Assembly (NCBI GenBank): GCA_028874075.1 | Contig: JAPPLU010000087.1 | Coordinates: forward strand, 6,738 to 70,737 | Origin: Chloroflexota bacterium | GTDB lineage: Bacteria > Chloroflexota > Dehalococcoidia > Lucifugimonadales > UBA3495 | Length of the DNA stretch: 64,000 nucleotides | Direction: 5' to 3' | In this document: positions 768-44,465 of the stretch, piece after piece | How the letters are laid out: each line of letters starts with the position of its first letter | Position numbering within the stretch: the first letter of the stretch is position 1 | Translations under genes and position numbers: made by a program | Notes under the pieces: model-generated | What the model was told of the DNA's origin: nothing | Databases searched by the model: none | What the model saw: only the letters and a program-made list of their open reading frames with translations

Positions 768-1162
768 CTATGCCATGGCGAACCAGCGGGCCCAGAGCAG
801 GGACAGGTCTGGTCTGGGTTCCGGTGCAGGCAGTTCCCGCATCAGCAGGTTGTCATACTTGCTCTCCCACGCCCAGGGCAGCAGGGCCAGCAGCATCCGG
901 CGGGGTTCGGGAATGTCTCCCTGTTCCCGCACCTTGTCCAGGTAGTTGTGCAGGTGCATCCAGGTGGTGAGCAAGAAACCACGGTCGGCGATTCTGCGGA
1001 TGACCTCCAGGGGCCTGGGGGCTCCTGTTGGTCGGCCACGACACGGGCGTAGTCGTGGTGGATCTCTTCGGTAGCGCGGCGCATACGGTAGATGGTGAGT
1101 TCCTTGTGGTACTTGCGCCGGAGGGAGCGGATTTCTCTCCTGATTTCGCTGAGGGTTCTCAT
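768..1162 (-). pseudogene. Hypothetical protein (about 130 aa) interrupted by a 1-nt frameshift at a G5 run
   Basis: ATG at 1162 has AGGAG 8 nt upstream. It reads MRTLSEIRREIRSLRRKYHKELTIYRMRRATEEIHHDYARVVADQQEPP, then turns into Cys/Trp/Thr-rich junk. The adjacent frame continues protein-like (LEVIRRIADRGFLLTTWMHLHNYLDKVREQGDIPEPRRMLLALLPWAWESKYDNLL...) to the stop at 768. Adding one G to the run at 1016-1020 joins the two frames. Confidence 0.35.
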
Positions 1163-1202: not shown

Positions 1203-1625
1203 TTCGACAGGCTCAGGATGAGCGGCGGGCGCTATCGTGAGAATTTTTTTGAAAAGTGTCCCATTGGGTCCCATTGGGTCCCATTTTTGGGTAGAGCCGT
1301 CTCATTTCAGAGATGCCTTTGACCGCAGAGGCGCAGAGGACGCGGAGTTTCGCAGAGGCGCTTTGTGCATCGTTGGGACATCTGTGCCTCCCTGGAAAAT
1401 GGGGATTGGGTCACGGTTTTATGGTGAGATGGTGTTATGCAGGTCGTCAATGGGGAGAGTGTCAATGATGCGGGTCGGGGAAGGAATGGTAGGAGCGTGC
1501 CGCCGTCTCTTTTGTGAATGAGGTGGATGGGTCCGCCACGGTGGGTCGGTCCAACCCTGGCAAGGCTCCCGCCTCGGGGTAAGGGACGGGCTTTCCCCCA
1601 ATCAGAAGGCGATTACGGTGGGAGT
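1203..1625. repeat. Copy A (diverged) of the GGGCCRTTYY-array intergenic element
   Basis: Shares ordered anchors with copies at 17.6 and 42.8 kb: ccttcga, gaattttttt (1241), cccatt(tt)ggg tandem units (1258-1290), atggggagag, atggtag (1486), gacgggctttccc..aatca.aa.gcgatt (1585-1615). Also holds cgcagagg repeats (1321-1360). Confidence 0.5.
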
Positions 1626-4548: not shown

Positions 4549-7500
4549 TCACCCTTCTATCGGCTTCAAGTAGGAGTCAATCTGCTCAATGTTGTAGCTG
4601 CCCCTTTGCATCAGCAGGGCTTCCACCGCGGCCCGGGCGGTGTCCAGGGAGGTGAAACAGGGGATGCGTCGGTCCACGGCGGCCCGGCGGATGTAATAGC
4701 CGTCCCGCATTACCGACGTGTCGCCGGACAGGGTATTGACCACCGCCGCTACGGTCCCGTCGTTAATCACATCCACCACGTTGGGATAGGACTCGGTGAG
4801 CAGTTTGGTGACCATGGTGGCGGGCATGCCGGTGGCCTGGATCATGGCGGCCGTGCCCTCGGTGGCGTACAGTTTGCAGTCGGCCTCCAGCAGTTCCCGG
4901 ATCAGGGGCAGGGCCTCGGCCTTGTGCTGGTCGGCGATGCTCAGCAGCACCCCGTCGCCCCGCTTCAGGCTCAGGCTGGCCGCCATCAGCGCCTTGGACA
5001 GGGCCCCGGGGAAATCGCGGTCGATGCCCATCACCTCACCAGTGGACTTCATTTCCGGCCCCAGGTAGGAGTCCACGCCCACCAGCTTGGACATTGAGAA
5101 GACGGGCGCCTTGATTGCCGCCAGCTTTTGGCGGGGCCACAGGCCGCCGGAATAGCCCATATCCGCCAGCGTCTCCCCCAGCATGACTCGAGTTGCCAGG
5201 CTGGCCACGGGTACGCTGGTAACCTTGGAGATGAAGGGGATGGTGCGGCTGCCCCGGGGGTTCACCTCAATAATATAGACGGTAGTTTCCGAGTCGTCCG
5301 TAGGCGAGTGGGGACTGCGGTAGGCACTGCCGCCCTGGATGACAAACTGGATGTTCATCAACCCCCGCACGCCCATGGCCAGGCCGATGCGGGTGGCGTA
5401 GTCCACCAGGGTATCCACTTCCTGCTCGGTCAGGTTCAGACCGGGGTAGATGGCCATGGAGTCGCCGCTGTGGACTCCGGCCCGTTCGATGTGTTCCATG
5501 ATGCCGGGGATCAGCACCTGCTCCCCGTCGCAAATGGCGTCCACCTCGCATTCCTTGCCTTCCATGTAGTGGTCCACCAGGACCAGCCGTTCCGGCGTAA
5601 CCTCGGTGGCCACCGTCAGGTACCGCACCAGTTCCGAGGCGTTCTGGACGATTTCCATGGCCCTCCCGCCCAGCACGTAGCTGGGCCGGACCACCACCGG
5701 GTAGCCGATGTTCTGGGCCACCTGCAGGGCCTCGGAAACCGATGCCACCGACGCCCCCGGCGGTTGGGGAATGCCCAGGCGGGAGAGGAATTCTTCGAAC
5801 CGCTGCCGGTCCGACGCCACATCGATAGCGTCGGCGCTGGAACCCAGGATGGGCAATCCGGCGTTGGCCAGGGACTGGGACAGGTTGATGGCAGTCTGCC
5901 CGCCGAACTGGACCACCGACGGAGGAGGATCATCGTCCACCGTCTCGTTGTCAATGATGTCCCGCACCGCTTCCTCGTCCAGCGGCTCGAAGTAGAGCCG
6001 ATCGCTGGTGTCGAAGTCGGTGGAAACGGTCTCCGGGTTGGAGTTGATCATCACGCTGGAAACGCCGGCCGCAGAAAGGGCCCAGGCGGCGTGCACGCTG
6101 CAGTAGTCGAACTCGATCCCCTGGCCGATGCGGATGGGGCCGCTGCCGATGACTATGGCCTTCCTGCCAGGCAATGGCGGGGCCTCATTCTCCTGCTCGT
6201 AGGTGCTGTAATAGTAGGGAGTAACTGCCTCGAACTCGGCGGCGCAGGTGTCCACCATCTTGTACACCGGCCGCAGATCCCAGCGGTGGCGCAGGTCCCG
6301 CACCTGCTCCGGCAGCATGTCGGCCAGGGTGCCCACCTGCACGTCGGAAAAGCCCAGCCGCTTAGCCCTATACAGCAGGTCCGGTGTCAATGTCTCACCC
6401 AGCAGCCTCCGCTCCATGCTGACGATGCGCTGCATGGCGCTGATGAACCAGGGATCAACGTAGGTCTTCCCCAGCAGTTCGTCGGCGGATGTGTTACGAC
6501 GCAGCGCAGACATCATGGCCCACAGGCGCAGGTCGTTGGGCTCCAGCAGGCCCTCAGAGTCCCGCCCCGACTTCTGACCCTCGGCGGCGGCGCCCTCCCA
6601 CAGCAAAGTGCGGTTGCCAATCTCCAGGGAGCGGGTGGCTTTCTGCAACGCCGCCTCGAAGGACCGGTCGATGGCCATCACCTCGCCGGTGGCCTTCATC
6701 TGGGTGGTAACCTGGCGATCGCCGTTGGGGAACTTGTCAAAGGGCCAGCGGGGAATCTTGACCACGCAGTAGTCCAGGGCAGGCTCAAAGGCGGCGCCCG
6801 TCTTGCCGGTGACGGCGTTGGGAATCTCGTGGAGACGTTTGCCCACGGCGATTTTGGCTGACACCCGGGCAATGGGATATCCGGTGGCCTTGCTGGCCAG
6901 GGCCGAACTGCGGCTGACCCGGGGGTTCACTTCGATGATGTAGTAGTCGGAGTCCGGCTCCCACTGGGCCTGCAGAGCCTCGGCCACCCGGGGATGGGGC
7001 CGCAGGGCCATCTGGATATTGCAGCCACCTTCGATGCCCAGGCCCCTGATGATCTTCAGGCTGGCCGTCCGGAGCATCTGGTACTCCTTATCGGTCAGGG
7101 TCTGGCTGGGGGCAACCACAATGCTGTCGCCCGTGTGGGCGCCCATTGGATCCAGGTTTTCCATGTTGCAGACGGTGATGCAGTTGTCGTCGCCGTCCCG
7201 GATAACCTCGTACTCGATCTCCTTCCAGCCCACCAGGGAGCGTTCCAGCAGCACCTGGGAAATGGGACTCAAAGCAAGACCGTTGCTGACAATTTCCTCG
7301 AACTTCTCGCGGGTGTTGGCGATGCCGCCGCCGGTGCCGCCCAGGGTGTAGGCCGGCCGCGCCACCAAGGGTAAGCCCATCAGGTCGCAGTACTCTCGGG
7401 CTTCTTCCATGGAGTTGACGGTGCGGTTGGGCGGTTCCGGTTCGCCGATGTCGTGCAGGAAGTTGCGGAAGAACTCCCGGTCCTCGGCTTTGCGGATGGT

Positions 7501-17268: not shown

Positions 17269-17342
17269 CGGTATGGCGTGTTGAAGTCCGGCAGGCGAGA
17301 TTCCTGGATCCAAGAACGTTAAGAAAGCACCATTCAGGCACC

Positions 17343-17456
17343 ATGGTGAAGAAGTACGACCATATAATCGTCGGAGCGGGTCCCGCCGGCGCGGCCCGTG
17401 CAGCCCCCTTTCGGGAGACTTCCATCGCACTGTCTACTCCCGGAAGCCGGGGCTGA
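17343..17456 (+). pseudogene. Remnant of an FAD-dependent oxidoreductase N-terminus
   Basis: MVKKYDHIIVGAGPAGAARAA... is a Rossmann GxGxxG dinucleotide-binding start, but a stop follows after 37 codons and no continuation is recognisable. Confidence 0.45.
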
Positions 17457-17541
17457 TTCCCGGGGCCAGCGGGGTATGCCCGAGAAAATCAACCACACTA
17501 ATGCAAACCACATGAATCTGAGCGCTACCCCTCGCAACCAT

Positions 17542-18107
17542 CAGGGCAATCGCATTTTGAGTCAGGCAAGAGGGGCGTCCGCCAGAGGCGGATCGCTCAA
17601 GGGAATCGCCGCAGTCTCCAACATGGAGGTTCCCGCCTGCCTTCGGGGCATTCAGTCTGGGGAATTTTTTTATATTCGTCCCATTTTGGGCCGTTTCGGG
17701 CCGTTTCGTATCTGAATCTCAGGTCAGATACGACTCCGGTGGCCCGAAAGTGGGCCACTCCCCAGATAGGAAATGGGTTGGACAAGCGGGCCATTTTGGG
17801 CCGTTCCGGGCCGTTTTGAGCCACTGACTTAAACCAGAGCCGATGACACGCCCTCACTCCGGCACTCTTCCATGGGGAGAGAAGTGATTCAGGCTTGACG
17901 GGACCATGGATAGAAGGCGTCATGGAAGTATGGTAGAGAAGCGTTAACCGGAGAATCAAGAGGCAAGTGTCACCAGGGCAATGGCGTTTTGAGTCCGGCA
18001 AAAGGGGGGCAGTTTTCGCCCAAGGTATAACCCCGCAGTCTCCAGGCTCGAGGTACCAGACTGCGCTAGAACGACGGGCTTTCCCGAATCATAACGCGAT
18101 TGCCCTG
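17542..18107. mobile_element. 566-bp non-coding element with terminal inverted repeats and a 10-bp target-site duplication (MITE-like)
   Basis: Left end cagggcaatcgc (17542-17553) and right end gcgattgccctg (18096-18107) are perfect 12-bp inverted repeats, 19 of 22 when extended. The flanking direct repeat tcgcaaccat sits at 17532-17541 and 18108-18117. No credible ORF inside. Confidence 0.7.
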
Positions 18108-18426
18108 TCGCAACCATCCGTTTACATCAATTTAACAAGGCATTAGAGTAAGGGGACAGCCAAGAGTCGAGGTGAGGGCGTTTTCCCGAAGGTACTTGCT
18201 ACCAGAACTTCGGGTTCTCCGTCGACCCTCGATGGTCTGGGATAGGCAGCCTCCCGAAACTCTTGAAGGCCCCGGAACCGGGCGGCAATTTACTTGGTCA
18301 GCCACGGCGTCCCTGCTGCATTTTCGTTGCTTTTGACTCAGTTTCTGCATTGCGTCGCCATTTAGTTGCAGTTTAATTTACCAGTCGCCCGCCCGGCTCC
18401 CCATCCTGTCCAAGCCTGGTGCAAGA

Positions 18427-40076: not shown

Positions 40077-40430
40077 GGGGACGCGCGGGTTCGACAGGAG
40101 CGTCCTGGGGCAGATTGCAAGCCGAGGCGCCACCGCCCTCGTTAATCAGGTGGCACACAAATAACTGGCGAACGTGAATTCGCTCTAGCCGCCTAAGCGC
40201 GGCTACGTCCGTACCCTGCTACTCCCGGATGCGGGGCTACGGGCGCCATTAGGCCGGGATGCGGTTGCCCTGAAGCCGATAGGGGTTGCTCAAGATTAAT
40301 CGGCTGGCCTGACGGATATTAGGCCGGCGGAAGCTCCGACAGGCGAGAACTAGAGCGCCGGACAAGCTTGTAGTAGATCTAGTCTAGGGGCCTTTTGGAC
40401 GGGGAGTTCGACTCTCCCCCGTCTCCACCA
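40077..40430 (+). ncRNA. ssrA: tmRNA (transfer-messenger RNA)
   Basis: 5' GGGGACGCGCGGGTTCGACAGG and 3' GGACGGGGAGTTCGACTCTCCCCCGTCTCCACCA form the tRNA-like ends. The tag reading frame at 40167-40196 encodes GEREFALAA followed by a stop. Confidence 0.93.
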
Positions 40431-40712
40431 ATTCCCTCCAATGCTATGCGCGGCTTTCCTACCTCCACTTCAACGCCGGAGCATCCTGCTTTGGCTGTTG
40501 GGTTACGACGTTCTTCATCCTTTGTTCTCGTATACCCCATCCGGTTCGAGCATCGAAAGTAGCCTCGTATGGGGGTAGCACCGCCTGTTCCAGCCATAGG
40601 TTTGTCTGCGGAGCTTCCCGTATATGCTGCGCCAGTACTGCCCTGGCACGCAATCCAGCATGGGAAAGAAACAGGCAAGCTTGCAGCCCACTGGCGAAAG
40701 ACCGGAGACTAA

Positions 40713-41351
40713 ATGACTCGCAACCTGGACTTTTGCGCCATTGATGTGGAGACGGCCAACTATTGGGTTGCCAGCATTTGCAAGATTGGCGTGGCGCGGG
40801 TTACGGAAGGTCGGGTGGATAAACAATATTCCACCCTGGTGGACCCGGAAGAGGGGTTCAATTCCTTCAACGTCAGGCTCCATGGCATCGGACCCGGGTC
40901 CGTGAGCGGGGCGCCCTCCTTTGACGAAGTATTCGGTGAGCTGTTCGACCTGCTGGATGGCAAGGTGCTGGTGAGCCACACCTTCTTTGACCGCAACGCT
41001 ATGAATGGAGCGGCCCAGAGGTATGGCTTGCCCATCTTGCCCGTTACCTGGCTGGACAGCGTGGCCATTGCCCGCCGGGCCTGGCCGGAGAGGAGGGGAA
41101 ACCGGGGGTATCGGCTGGCCGCCCTGGCTGCCGACCTGGGCATTTCCTTTCGCCACCACGACGCTCTGGAGGACGCCCGGGCTGCGGCAGGGGTGGTACT
41201 TTACGCTTGCCTGGAAACGGGCATGGATATCGACGACTGGGTGCGGGAGTTCGACCGCAGCCGGGCTCGCCGGTCCCGTCCCGGGGAGAAGGATGTACGG
41301 AAAGCCAGCCAGTCAAGCACCAGTCGGCCGGGGCAGGTCGCCGCTGATTGA
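40713..41351 (+). CDS. DEDD 3'-5' exonuclease (DnaQ/epsilon-like)
   Basis: 212-aa ORF. Motifs: FCAIDVETAN (Exo I), LVSHTFFDRNAM (Exo II) and HHDALEDARA (Exo III, DEDDh). Confidence 0.85.
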   Translation: MTRNLDFCAIDVETANYWVASICKIGVARVTEGRVDKQYSTLVDPEEGFNSFNVRLHGIGPGSVSGAPSFDEVFGELFDLLDGKVLVSHTFFDRNAMNGAAQRYGLPILPVTWLDSVAIARRAWPERRGNRGYRLAALAADLGISFRHHDALEDARAAAGVVLYACLETGMDIDDWVREFDRSRARRSRPGEKDVRKASQSSTSRPGQVAAD

Positions 41352-41533
41352 GACCAGGTCATCCTATCCATAGAAGACCTACCGCAACTGTCCGCCTCCC
41401 AAGTTTTCCAGTCGTTTTTTGTCCTGCTTTCCGCAGAGCTTCGTAGGAGCGGCGGAGGGAAGGTTGGCGGCCAACAATCAGACGGTCTTTGACCTGATGC
41501 TCCGTGACTTCAGGTGCAGGGCCACGGCTCGGG

Positions 41534-42583
41534 TCAGCCGGCGGCCAGGGCGGGCAAGATGTGGTTGGAGAAGGCCTGAACTTCCGCTTGGGGCGGCGCA
41601 AAGGTAAGGCAGGGCATGAGATAAAGCTGGTTGACGCCGTGTCGCTCCATTTCCCTAATGCGCTGCGTACAGTATTCCGGGGTGCCGATTAGCCCCAGGG
41701 CGTCGCATAGCTGCCCGTTGACTTCGTCGCTGACGAAGCCCGTCATGTCGATGGCTTCCTCCCAGTTGGGTGCGTGCCCCAGGTCGGGATAAATGTCGTA
41801 CACGGCCTGGGGTATCTTGTATTCGGGTATGTCATAGCCGGAATAGGGGAGCCAGTTGGGACCGCCCCACATGAGACCCCAGTGAACGGACACGGGCCGA
41901 GCCAGACGTCGGGCCTCGTCCACCGAGTCTGCGATGCAGGTCCTGACCGCAAACATAATGTCCAGGTCATCCAGGGTACGGCCGCTGCGCCGGGCGCCGA
42001 TTTCCAAATGCTCCAGGGCCTTTCCCACTATGCCGGGGGTGTAGCCCACCAGGGCAAGAGCGCCGTCGGCCACCTCGCCGGCCAGTTGGAGCGAGCGGGG
42101 TCCCGAGGCCGCCATTAGCACCGGCACACCGGCGCCGCCATCGCTGCCGGCGAAGTCCAGCCGATTCGTCATTCCGTCATATTCCACGCTTTCCCCGGCC
42201 AGCAAGGCCTTAACCTCAGTGATGCAGCGGCGCATCTGACGCAGGGTGGCGGGACGGCGGCCGATGGTACTGGCGGAAGTGTATCCGGTGCCGATAATTA
42301 TGCGGGTGCGGCCAGGGGCTATTTCCGCTACCGTTTGCGCTGCGCCAGCCAGCACCGGGGCAATGCGGCCAAAGGGGTTGGTAACCGCGGGGAAGAGGCG
42401 CAGGGTACTGGTGGCGCTGGCGGCCAGGCCCAGGGTCACAAAGGTGTCCCGGCATATCATCTGGCTGTCCAGGATTCCGGCGCCGTCAAAACCGGCAGCC
42501 TCGATCTGCCGGATCATATCCAGCAACTCGGGCATGGGCGAAGTTCCGGGTACGCGCATGGAGATTTTGATGGGCTGGGCCAT
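41534..42583 (-). CDS. LLM class (probably F420-dependent) oxidoreductase
   Basis: ATG at 42583 with GGAGG upstream (MAQPIKISMRVPG...). The track ORF extends to 42970 across a non-coding repeat, and that extension is rejected. Confidence 0.88.
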   Translation of the reverse strand: MAQPIKISMRVPGTSPMPELLDMIRQIEAAGFDGAGILDSQMICRDTFVTLGLAASATSTLRLFPAVTNPFGRIAPVLAGAAQTVAEIAPGRTRIIIGTGYTSASTIGRRPATLRQMRRCITEVKALLAGESVEYDGMTNRLDFAGSDGGAGVPVLMAASGPRSLQLAGEVADGALALVGYTPGIVGKALEHLEIGARRSGRTLDDLDIMFAVRTCIADSVDEARRLARPVSVHWGLMWGGPNWLPYSGYDIPEYKIPQAVYDIYPDLGHAPNWEEAIDMTGFVSDEVNGQLCDALGLIGTPEYCTQRIREMERHGVNQLYLMPCLTFAPPQAEVQAFSNHILPALAAG

Positions 42584-42803
42584 GGCGGATACCTCCGGTG
42601 GTGGGCTGACTTGATCAAGTTGACGCGGGAAAGTATACCAGCGCGGGGCAGCAGGCAGGACCGCAGCAACAAAGCTCCGATTCAGGCAGTCTGTGGTAAG
42701 GGCCCCGCGGATGCCCGCTTTTTCCCTTTTGCGGCAACTGCCAGATGCCGGTGAAATCCGGTATGACGAACGCCCTGACCAGCCAACCGGGGATTGCGCC
42801 ACG

Positions 42804-43125
42804 GCCTTCGAGCGTTCCCGAAGTAGGAATTTTTTGCTTTCTAGCGCCATTTTGGGCCGTTTCGTATCTGGCAGCAGGGCCATGACGGCGCCGGATGGCA
42901 CTCCGGTGGGCCCCCGGGGGCCGTTTTCCAGATAGGGAATCGCCCCGGGAAATGGCCCACGCCGGGCCATTTTGGGCCATTACGTACCACGGTCGGCAAG
43001 AGACAGAACTGAACCTGACTATAGCCCTGCTCCTCATTGCCAACTGTGGGTGAATCGGGACGACAATGAGATCATGAAATTATGGTAGAAGAGGGCTTTC
43101 CTTGATGACAATGGACAAATGTCAG
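42804..43125. repeat. Copy C of the GGGCCRTTYY-array intergenic element
   Basis: Anchors appear in the same order as copy B: ccttcga, ggaatttttt (42826), ccattttgggccgtttcgtatctg, actccggtgg + GC palindrome, ccagatagggaat, gggccattttgggcc, atggtagaag (43082), gggctttcc. Confidence 0.55.
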
Positions 43126-43270
43126 CGGTCTGCCCCGACGAGCGTTCCCGAGCAAACCACCTAATTCGCACTGTCAATGCGGCTTCGCCAGGGATGGCCG
43201 CAAAGGTTACTGACAGTTGCTTATTGTGGAATCCATAGCGCGCCCAATAGACTGGCAGAGGTAACCCATT

Positions 43271-43292
43271 TTGTTACGCTTTTTGTTACGCT
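43271..43292 (+). promoter_or_regulatory. Tandem direct repeat ttgttacgct x2 (12-bp period) just upstream of the nuclease gene
   Basis: ttgttacgct occurs at 43271-43280 and 43283-43292, ending 15 nt before the ATG. Possible operator. Confidence 0.3.
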
Positions 43293-43307
43293 GCTGAGAG
43301 GTCAAAA

Positions 43308-43970
43308 ATGGCGCTCGCCCGCTTAACCGGTCCTTACTTCTGGGTGTCGTGGCTCAGCAAGCTGCTGGTAGGAGAAAGCTCTTGCCAGTGGGGCGTCTGG
43401 TTCCGTGCCCAGCACGAAGGCTCATCCTGGGAGAAGGTACCTTCCGATTTCGACCAGGTCCAGTGGCTGATAAAGCATGGGGAACTGCTGGAGCAGACTC
43501 GCCGCTATTACGAGCGGCAGGGGTACCTGGTGTCGGAAGCATCGCAGAACTCCTTTAATCTCAGGGGCGCTACCGCCACCCTGGCGGGCCGGCCCGACCT
43601 GGTGGTGACCAGGGATGGTGAAGTAGTGGTGGTGGACGTTAAGGTAGGTCAACCCAACGCTTCACATACGGCCCAGGTGATGACCTACATGTACGCACTG
43701 CCCCGGGCGATGCAAAGCATGTTTCATGGAACCAGGATCAGCGGTCAGGTGGTCTACCCGGACGGACCGGTGGACGTTCCCGAGGCTGCGGTGAGCCAGG
43801 AATTTATCGCCGCCCTGGGAGGACTAGTCCGAGGCCTGGCCGTCAGCGAGGCGCCCCGGAAAACGCCCAGCTGGAACGAATGCCGTTTCTGTCCCATAGG
43901 TGCCAGAGACTGCCCGGAGCGGGTAGACATTTGCGATGAACAACCCGTAGGGATTACCGAGGACTTCTGA
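43308..43970 (+). CDS. Cas4/RecB-like PD-(D/E)XK nuclease with 4-Cys cluster
   Basis: 220-aa ORF. Nuclease motifs are GRPDLVV...VVVVDVKVG (D...DxK) and QVMTY (QxxxY). Cys pattern is one N-terminal Cys (ESSCQW) plus CRFCPIGARDC. Confidence 0.7.
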   Translation: MALARLTGPYFWVSWLSKLLVGESSCQWGVWFRAQHEGSSWEKVPSDFDQVQWLIKHGELLEQTRRYYERQGYLVSEASQNSFNLRGATATLAGRPDLVVTRDGEVVVVDVKVGQPNASHTAQVMTYMYALPRAMQSMFHGTRISGQVVYPDGPVDVPEAAVSQEFIAALGGLVRGLAVSEAPRKTPSWNECRFCPIGARDCPERVDICDEQPVGITEDF

Positions 43971-44060
43971 GGGAGTTCAGAAAGACAGGGATTTGCGGTA
44001 TCCTGTTGGCGGTTGCTGCCGCCAACCGTTATATATCCTACATGCTGGCGAGAGACTGAC

Positions 44061-44465
44061 ATGGAGCGAGTAACGATACAGGAAGCATCTTACCGACTGA
44101 ACCTGTCCCAGGCGGAAATCCGCCGCTATATCCGGGAGGGCCGACTACGGGCGAGCCGGGAAGGCGGCCCCCAGGGGCGTACCTGGCTGGTGGAACTGCC
44201 CGAGGAGGGCTGGCTGGACGACGATAAGGCGCGCTACCACGAAATGGCCCAGGGAATGCCCGTATGGTGGTGGCCAACGGAGGCAAAGACGGGGCTGGCC
44301 CACTACATTCTCGATGTGGGCATAGAGGAAACTGTGCCAGTTTACCTCTGCGGGCTGGAAAGCGAAAATCTGTGGGCCGTTACGGGCCTGAAGACAGAAA
44401 ACTGCTGCCCCACCTGCCTGGGAATTGCCCACGAGCGGGGCCTTCCGCTGGCCCTGGACCAATAG
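44061..44465 (+). CDS. Excisionase/MerR-type HTH domain protein with a Cys-containing C-terminal domain
   Basis: Motif: MERVTIQEASYRLNLSQAEIRRYIREGRLRA (HTH_17-like). The C-terminus has LCGL...CCPTC. Confidence 0.6.
   Translation: MERVTIQEASYRLNLSQAEIRRYIREGRLRASREGGPQGRTWLVELPEEGWLDDDKARYHEMAQGMPVWWWPTEAKTGLAHYILDVGIEETVPVYLCGLESENLWAVTGLKTENCCPTCLGIAHERGLPLALDQ

Follow-up and report, generated by a model that had tools for sequence, protein, structure and literature searches.

Introduction

Interspersed repeats of bacteria are usually short palindromes or plain miniature inverted-repeat transposable elements (MITEs). The BOX elements of Streptococcus pneumoniae and the Correia elements (CREE) of Neisseria are modular intergenic repeats which can carry promoters or protein-binding sites. 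Repeat arrays also act as autoregulated operators of small plasmid proteins, as in the parC-ParR system of plasmid R1 and in iteron-Rep systems. Here, we examine a 350-bp intergenic module in which a promoter-like block is combined with phased 10-bp repeats and which is tied to an orphan gene, named p131. The analysis starts from a 64-kb stretch of a Chloroflexota bacterium (contig JAPPLU010000087.1, positions 6,738 to 70,737), hereafter the window, which holds three related copies, A, B and C. We focus on copy B, the module at 17624-17975. Coordinates are positions in the window unless another locus is named.

With BOX and CREE the module shares its dispersed, non-coding and modular character, a variable number of sub-repeats, a location near gene starts and a possible action on the expression of neighbours. 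In contrast to these elements, to which it has no sequence relation, its sub-repeat is phased at 10 bp (versus the 45-bp boxB), a dedicated protein gene accompanies it and it has no terminal inverted repeats (TIRs) of its own. The likeness to parC-ParR and iteron-Rep lies in tandem direct repeats of about one helical turn by the promoter of a small basic protein gene immediately downstream. However, the module is chromosomal and occurs dozens of times, it comes with neither a partition ATPase nor a replication initiator, and its arrays follow the candidate promoter. In its model, p131 also shows no relation to the fold of ParR of the ribbon-helix-helix (RHH) type. The initial annotation of this DNA recognised no named RNA or repeat family, and this stands: there is no Rfam match, and the literature, queried by exact string and by topic, has nothing on the element. 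No Rfam family, paper or protein family covers it, and it appears to be undescribed. In kind it belongs with the modular intergenic repeats and MITEs. What sets it apart are the arrays phased at 10 bp, the orphan protein dedicated to it and the fact that it is documented to travel as the cargo of a MITE.

Organization of the module

We read copy B as a gene-less solo copy of the control module of the p131 cassette. It would be a portable promoter-operator in which the phased repeats are p131 sites and which travelled as the passenger of a MITE. Judged from sequence, this composite reading seems to us somewhat better than an even bet. The parts of copy B and of its surroundings (window 17532-18117) are as follows.

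17532-17541, no strand: left target-site duplication TCGCAACCAT; an identical 10-mer lies at 18108-18117, and heterogeneous loose ends in the DNA runs start from exactly 17542
17542-17640, plus strand: left arm of an ISAs1-type MITE, with the TIR CAGGGCAATCGC at 17542-17553; a 71% direct repeat of 17971-18064
17641-17671, minus strand: proximal end of the module, hairpin TGCC-TTCGG-GGCA and T7 run (17665-17671)
17680-17707, minus strand: array 1, three 10-bp units GTCCCATTTT, GGGCCGTTTC, GGGCCGTTTC
17708-17787, minus strand: central region, with GTATCTG (17708-17714), hairpin GGTGGCCC-GAAAGT-GGGCCAC (17738-17758) and CAGATA (17763-17768)
17788-17822, minus strand: array 2, GGGCCATTTT, GGGCCGTTCC, GGGCCGTTTT, GAGCC
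17823-17929, minus strand: variable spacer (54% identity, 30% gap cells)
17930-17972, minus strand: conserved distal block, TGACAC (17972-17967), TTGATT (17959-17954), 18 nt, TACCAT (17935-17930)
17974-18107, plus strand: complete 134-bp mini-MITE of the same ISAs1-type family, self-complementary over this whole interval; right TIR GCGATTGCCCTG at 18096-18107
18108-18117, no strand: right target-site duplication TCGCAACCAT, identical to the left 10-mer

Every feature that the initial annotation had placed in copy B (T7 run, arrays, hairpin and the plus-strand letters TATGGTA, at 17929-17935) is present where it was drawn. On the minus strand, the functional one, the T7 run reads as an A-run box, and this run is unchanged in 20 of 20 copies. 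The central hairpin includes an inverted copy of the repeat unit. In other copies, the variable spacer frequently harbors hairpins resembling repetitive extragenic palindromes (REP).

Conservation is selective. Over 20 copies, in copy B coordinates, pairwise identity amounts to 86% for the T run, array 1 and TATCTG (17663-17715), 81% for array 2, 71% for the distal block (17930-17972, with 2% gap cells), 63% for the central part and 48% for the flank. The units are strictly phased, as had been claimed: adjacent GGGCC motifs are spaced by 10 nt in 79 of 83 pairs, by 11 nt in three and by 12 nt in one, and the number of units in array 2 differs between copies by whole 10-nt steps. T4 tracts that recur every 10 bp are classically known to give DNA an intrinsic bend. 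The window contains 11 occurrences of GGGCCRTTYY against 2.7 expected, a number reached by none of 100 shuffles, and nine of the 11 fall within copies B and C.

The same indel pattern bears on the coding potential. Copies which are about 93% identical differ by whole 10-nt indels, which would break any reading frame. The one point in favor of fragments of a degraded protein-coding gene is that long spurious minus-strand open reading frames (ORFs) cross the element, including one of 134 aa in copy B. This ORF (17597-18001) has no Pfam match, the frame changes with each repeat unit and tblastn detected no p131 remnants in the solo copies. A degraded gene is thus refuted by the indels and deserves practically no credence, and the element is non-coding, as the initial annotation had supposed. 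Annotation pipelines may nevertheless call such ORFs.

Within 17715-17787, several contigs of the DNA runs X1-X4 join array 1 straight to array 2, omitting 70-82 nt. Since the sides of the joints are shorter than 32 nt, they are probably an assembly-graph shortcut between the similar arrays; a short module variant without the center may also stand behind them.

A dispersed repeat family

Copy numbers rest on read depth, on public contigs and on the genomes of relatives. From 25 loci of two Dehalococcoidia metagenome-assembled genomes (MAGs) plus the window, a family profile made from the aligned copies recovered, with nhmmer, at least 24 full copies (E = 1e-113 to 2e-46) in three related sponge-associated Dehalococcoidia genomes; copy B itself (17624-17975) scores 302 bits. 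The element is therefore repeated well beyond the window. A scan of genome contigs with the two-box pattern CATTTTGGGCC-N85-115-CATTTTGGGCC returned 46 loci: 15 in the Dehalococcoidia MAG CBDBMH01, about 10 in OZ219949/45 and a remainder of scattered chance matches. At five of the OZ219949/45 loci, all or most of 17542-18107 is matched at 80-86%. The sponge metagenome X1 contains 94% of the sampled words, which identifies the organism as a sponge symbiont. In X1-X4, depth is about 17 in the flanks versus 60-350 within 17540-18115 (up to about 20-fold), and heterogeneous loose ends start exactly at 17542 and 18107/8.

A metagenome scan with the pattern TTTGGGCCRTTTYGTATYTG yielded nearly only chance matches. 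Two metagenome contigs of the Joint Genome Institute (L060, 1850-1888; L064, 152-190) carry TGTTTTGGGCC...GATTTTGGGCCGTTTCGTATCTGG followed by a second CGTATCTGG, and may represent, on sequence likeness, a distant relative of the array 1 and TATCTG part outside the three studied genomes.

Phased direct repeats beside an A+T-rich run might also suggest an iteron-type replication origin or a plasmid-like partition (centromere) site, the more so as two arrays around a central region resemble parC of plasmid R1. The census speaks against such a function: at least 15 copies per chromosome occupy ordinary intergenic regions. Furthermore, the copies showed no partner of the Rep, ParA/ParM or DnaA-box kind, the units measure 10 bp rather than the 17-22 bp of typical iterons, and the arrays lie downstream of the promoter-like block instead of flanking it. 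This explanation was already disfavored, and we regard it as very improbable.

Linkage of the arrays to the p131 gene

The initial annotation advised a search for a co-occurring DNA-binding gene. The candidate is p131, a multicopy orphan gene whose surroundings were compared in eleven fetched loci and the window. In all 12, two to four units (A)AA(T/C)GG(G/C/A)(A/C)C at 10-11 bp lie upstream of the gene and are followed by a box A(C/T)T(T/A)TCAAAAAAT. Array and A-run box precede the ribosome-binding site (RBS) by 40-120 nt in most loci, and stand further off in L069, where an insertion intervenes. As p131 always has such an array upstream, protein-binding arrays are the best reading of the repeats, with p131 as the putative ligand.

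The distal block of the solo module is homologous to that of p131 (CCCTG..TAAC.C...ACCATA). On comparison of their sequences, the solo module is the architecture of the p131 control region (block, spacer, arrays, A-run box) minus the gene. Arrays may also follow the gene. In L008, L066 and L067, p131 is followed after about 300 nt by a double array of the GGCCC type (array 2, center, array 1, A-run box); L068 matches this structure weakly and in the array 1 part only; in L073 and L074, a second array and A-run box come right after the p131 stop codon. The downstream array is absent from L069-L072 and L075. Finally, the similarity between cassettes stops at the A-run box.

These last features invite another explanation, in which the module is a selfish repeat: cutting, copying or recombination of the p131 cassette would take place at the arrays and A-run box, and solo copies would be empty or deleted sites without any regulation of the host. 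The direct-repeat arrays on both sides of p131 in L008, L066, L067, L073 and L074 recall attL/attR or long terminal repeats (LTRs), the cassette similarity ends exactly at the A-run box, p131 occurs in unrelated gene contexts across genomes, and copy B faces no intact gene. Yet the protein carries no recombinase, transposase or HUH motif and matches no family (PF01797 included), the bare cassette and the solo modules lack target duplications and terminal inverted repeats of their own, and five loci have no downstream array. A distal block with a fixed 18-nt spacing is also hard to square with a recombination site. We consider the selfish repeat rather unlikely. In the same vein, the arm-type or recombination-site role proposed for the arrays in the initial annotation finds no support in the neighborhood: no tyrosine or serine recombinase gene lies beside the 24 solo copies or the 12 cassettes, and an HTH_17 gene is found near copy C only.

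Two known systems illustrate how such a repeat might behave. Like solo LTRs, the gene-less copies keep two non-coding end regions of a longer unit which has a gene between direct repeats. However, there is no reverse transcriptase or integrase, the evidence does not support a deletion mechanism and some cassettes have no downstream array. In REP and bacterial interspersed mosaic elements (BIMEs) with their REP-associated tyrosine transposases (RAYTs), high-copy intergenic repeats are likewise possibly served by a small dedicated protein. In contrast to these, the units of the module are direct repeats and not palindromes of 20-40 nt, and p131 has neither HUH/Y1 motifs nor a PF01797 match.

The leaders of p131 contain further repeats. 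A second short repeat, (A)TTCGTG, occurs two to three times at 11-13-nt spacing between A-run box and RBS in L008, L066, L068, L070, L073 and L074, 10-50 nt upstream of the RBS; a REP-like insert takes its place in other loci. In the window, this 34-nt REP-like element (GTCCTTCGACAGGCTCAGGATGAGCGG..., 1192-1225) lies between p131 and its array. It is present in many metatranscriptome contigs, among them a 1.6-kb X34 contig at depth 228, and also in the p131 leaders of L067, L072, L073 and L075. In L070 (1350-2000), a hairpin repeat of about 45 bp (TCGTAGGGGCAGACCTGTGTGTCTGCCCTGGCCTGGCGCATCA) forms a long tandem array that interrupts the leader, with one copy of the three-unit array and its A-run box on each side.

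The p131 protein

The p131 family comprises 78 clusters at 90% identity, mostly of 131 aa; the full-length ones are 64-95% identical, several copies occur per genome and the family is under purifying selection. A profile search extends it to 243 clusters at 50% identity. The AlphaFold model is all-helical (pLDDT 86.6), with a basic N-terminal helix of 40 residues and a small bundle, and the isoelectric point is 10.2. The sequence has no significant match in Pfam, NCBIfam, PHROGs, PADLOC or the PDB sequences. Among the nearest, non-significant fold neighbors is the ribosomal protein bS20.

A weak likeness to the helicase-associated (HA) repeat is seen at residues 56-101. It rests on ten stretches in P0158, a protein with 11 repeats, and hhalign gives it a probability of only 2.8% (E = 0.016). 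In addition, a relative of p131, P0225, is fused to a helix-turn-helix (HTH) of the insertion sequence type. Owing to its isoelectric point, its basic N-terminal helix, the weak HA likeness and the HTH fusion, p131 looks like a nucleic-acid binder. The wider group (P0081-P0227) consists mostly of proteins of 100-200 aa without a Pfam match and includes a 915-aa protein of 11 HA (PF03457) repeats; it looks like an unannotated superfamily of small proteins.

The distal block as a candidate promoter

On the minus strand, the distal block takes the form TTGnnn, exactly 18 variable nt, (T/C)A(C/A)CAT in 17 of 20 solo copies and is preceded by TGACAC. The spacer between the hexamers shows no indels despite its variable sequence. 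Eight of 12 p131 cassettes have the corresponding sequence TTG(C/A)C(A/G/T)-18-CA(C/A)CATAA at a distance of 268-448 nt from the ATG, on its upstream side; CTGACA comes before this sequence, and its -35 takes the forms TTGCCA, TTGACG and TTGACT. Two hexamers separated by a fixed gap within the 16-19 nt of sigma-70-type promoters, with a free spacer, are thus found at 18 nt in 17/20 solo copies and 8/12 cassettes. Two conserved hexamer cores at a fixed distance around a free spacer are the pattern left by a sigma-70-type promoter, and we regard the distal block as a candidate, promoter-like in sequence, which points across the arrays on the minus strand. Of the 21 solo copies that are informative on orientation, 16 have the next gene past the A-run box on the same strand as the block, according to ORF-based gene calls (binomial ~0.013). 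A plus-strand promoter with TATGGT as -10 was considered: it lacks a -35 in the range of 16-19 nt, TTGACG being 28 nt away, and the upstream length varies between copies. The minus-strand reading is tentatively preferred.

The proposed mechanism can be laid out along the minus strand, where the promoter-like block is followed by the variable spacer, then by two arrays of A-tract units AAAAYGGCCC around a small palindrome, and then by the A-run box. We propose that p131 would bind the units, which are in phase with the helix, from one side of a DNA that is bent by its own sequence. Bound p131 would control transcription from the block, of its own gene in the first place. In solo copies, whichever gene follows the A-run box would come under this promoter and operator; alternatively, these copies may be decaying remnants. 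Promoter activity and its direction, binding by p131 and the regulation of neighboring genes are what we infer from this arrangement.

A number of observations weigh against this scheme. A generic promoter scanner placed the individual block sites below its threshold, and the -10 of the p131 cassettes is only CACCAT. On the opposite strand, TATGGT could equally well be an outward -10. Both neighboring genes tend to be divergent, so that gene orientation does not decide the direction. Copy B faces a truncated region without an intact gene and may be inert. With regard to the protein, Foldseek found no match for p131 in the PDB or BFVD and no DNA-binding fold was recognized. The solo arrays use GGCCC units whereas the p131-proximal arrays use GGGAC, GGAAC or GGCAC, and one protein may not read both types. 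The unit type of the proximal arrays (GGGAC, GGAAC, GGCAC) does track the p131 subgroup; protein and array being physically linked, this co-variation is not independent evidence. Lastly, the module is nearly absent from the eight metatranscriptome runs, for which transcript evidence consists of Logan contigs without strand. A single 180-nt contig of depth 2.7, in X19, covers 17628-17760, and none of the seven other runs yielded a module contig, including X34, which has p131 coding fragments.

RNA structure

The arrays might instead act at the level of RNA, as AAAAYGGCCC motifs in a long leader or small RNA. The motifs would titrate an RNA-binding protein or serve as its binding sites, this protein being possibly p131, and the hairpins would be structures of the RNA. 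Their place between the candidate promoter and the downstream gene implies that they would be transcribed, the X19 contig covers part of the module, and bS20 lies among the non-significant fold neighbors of p131. The central hairpin is weakly supported by a single clean compensatory change, in L011.

The structural evidence points the other way. An Rfam search of the element gave nothing at gathering score, with only chance-level matches at E up to 10. Over 463 columns, RNAalifold predicts 21 pairs at -15.6 kcal/mol with a covariation term of +0.2, and neither strand shows significant covariation. The named helices have a covariation score of 0.130, which equals the shuffled mean of 0.130 and is reached by 239 of 500 shuffles. 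In L021, both arms of the hairpin are changed to GGACC, which breaks the pairing. The hairpin gtatctga/tcagatac of the initial annotation is found in copy B only; across the family, TATCTG pairs with CAGATA (17763-17768). In L008 and L032 these two motifs form a direct repeat instead of an inverted one, and in the four most divergent copies the pair is not kept. The covariation check which the initial annotation had asked for hence reveals no conserved fold. Moreover, this multicopy family left no contig in seven of the eight RNA runs. The structured RNA that had been offered as an alternative is not supported, and we think an RNA-level function improbable.

An intrinsic terminator at 17641-17671 (hairpin and T7), listed by a scanner, was not adopted: in most copies, the T run lies 14 nt from the conserved stem.

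Transport of copy B by a MITE

The initial annotation had placed the module between MITE ends, and the outer boundaries of copy B bear this out. The outer 566 bp (17542-18107) are bordered by perfect 12-bp TIRs (CAGGGCAATCGC/GCGATTGCCCTG) and a 10-bp target duplication, and contain no transposase. ISArsp11, a member of the ISAs1 family, has CAGGGC ends and 10-bp direct repeats (PMC6305408). In locus L038, the terminus CAGGGCAATCGCATT at 5280 lies 65 nt before an ORF encoding a PF13808 (ISAs1-type) transposase (E = 3.5e-31). This element (5280-7300), with the N-terminal PF13808 ORF, is broken by an insertion which encodes a 507-aa DDE_Tnp_1_4 (IS1380-like) transposase.

The composite consists of the left MITE arm (17542-17640), the module and the complete 134-bp mini-MITE (17974-18107). 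Three independent insertions of the composite are documented by different target duplications of 9-10 bp: TCGCAACCAT in the window, GGAGAGCGGC in L044 and AGCGCATAT in L015/L042. The terminus CAGGGYNAT abuts the distal block in at least 12 copies, and copy C, L023, L006, L032 and L043 are without MITE ends. Since the module also exists without MITE ends, it is cargo, and its arrays are not part of the transposon machinery. Copy B otherwise resembles an ISAs1-derived MITE: its TIRs start with CAGGG, it is multicopy, and a relative genome has a transposase with the same terminus. It differs from such MITEs by its p131-type passenger. Judged by its ends, copy B arrived inside a 566-bp composite MITE of the ISAs1 type, which would be mobilized in trans by an ISAs1-family transposase.

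One X3 contig joins 17324 to 18108. Its right junction is exact and the left one lies 217 nt outside the element; on account of this joint, the X3 relative would lack the whole of 17325-18107, the element included. A 37-codon stump of a FAD-binding oxidoreductase (MVKKYDHIIVGAGPAGAA..., 17343-17456, plus strand) ends 85 nt before the MITE. The target duplication of the MITE is intact, so its insertion did not truncate this gene.

Copies A and C and their surroundings

The two other copies and the p131 gene of the window are located as follows.

768-1162, minus strand: p131 gene, frameshifted (three-frame translation), with intact 131-aa orthologues in L008 and L072
about 1240-1465, minus strand: copy A, p131-proximal form of the module, with the T run at 1244-1250 and three GTCCCATTGG-type units at 1258-1287
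42788-43126, minus strand: copy C, solo module without MITE ends, TTGTCA-18-TACCAT, with arrays at 42847-42863 and 42964-42983

Copy C is a clear homologue (174 bits, E = 5e-52 with the family profile in nhmmer), in agreement with the recurrence first noticed at 42.8 kb. It aligns with copy B over about 200 nt, whereas copy A aligns weakly. Copy C is directed at an LLM oxidoreductase gene (41534-42583, minus strand) and has about 115 nt of extra upstream sequence in common with L023, the gene context of which differs. Like copy B, it has no p131.

The diverged copy reported at 1.2 kb is indeed related, but copy A is another variant, which the solo-module profile does not detect. Its block consists of TTGACG (1450-1445), 18 nt and CACCAT (1426-1421), with TGACA at 1464-1460. 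The ‘atggtag’ anchor assigned to it at 1487 was misplaced: the homologous block is ttatggtg (1419-1426) with cgtcaa (1445-1450). Copy A lies directly upstream of the window p131, and the DNA ahead of p131 in L008 and L072 is collinear with it. We considered copy A as the orthologue of the full L008 module and rejected this on coordinates, the full module of L008 being downstream of p131 and copy A a degenerate upstream module.

The window p131, beside copy A, is frameshifted after about residue 50. The gene is intact at 1334-1729 in L008 and also in the syntenic L072 (P0042), between the same OCD and MFS genes. The window gene is either a real pseudogene or the product of a single-base assembly error.

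Around copy C, a gene for a DnaQ-like exonuclease comes after the tmRNA gene (40077-40430), and beyond the module lie genes for a Cas4-like PD-(D/E)XK nuclease (43308-43970) and an HTH_17 excisionase-like protein (44058-44465). An element once integrated at the tmRNA may have left the region 40077-44465 as its remnant.

Biological significance

A broader picture can be drawn tentatively, and as a whole we would not expect it to be right. Here, p131 and its arrays would form a self-spreading regulator-operator system, based on a new helical fold which is possibly HA-related. This fold would recognise units spaced by one helical turn on bent DNA. Deletion and capture by ISAs1 MITEs would scatter the modules and bring dozens of unrelated metabolic genes of sponge symbionts into one regulon under p131. 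The wider superfamily of 243 clusters may do likewise in other bacteria.

The module accounts for much of the ‘repeat-filled’ intergenic DNA in sponge-associated Dehalococcoidia and has demonstrably moved as the cargo of a MITE. Should the function proposed for the module be right, mobile DNA would distribute a ready-made promoter and operator across the genome. The module would then also offer a first way into the p131 family, whose small basic proteins are widespread and lack annotation.

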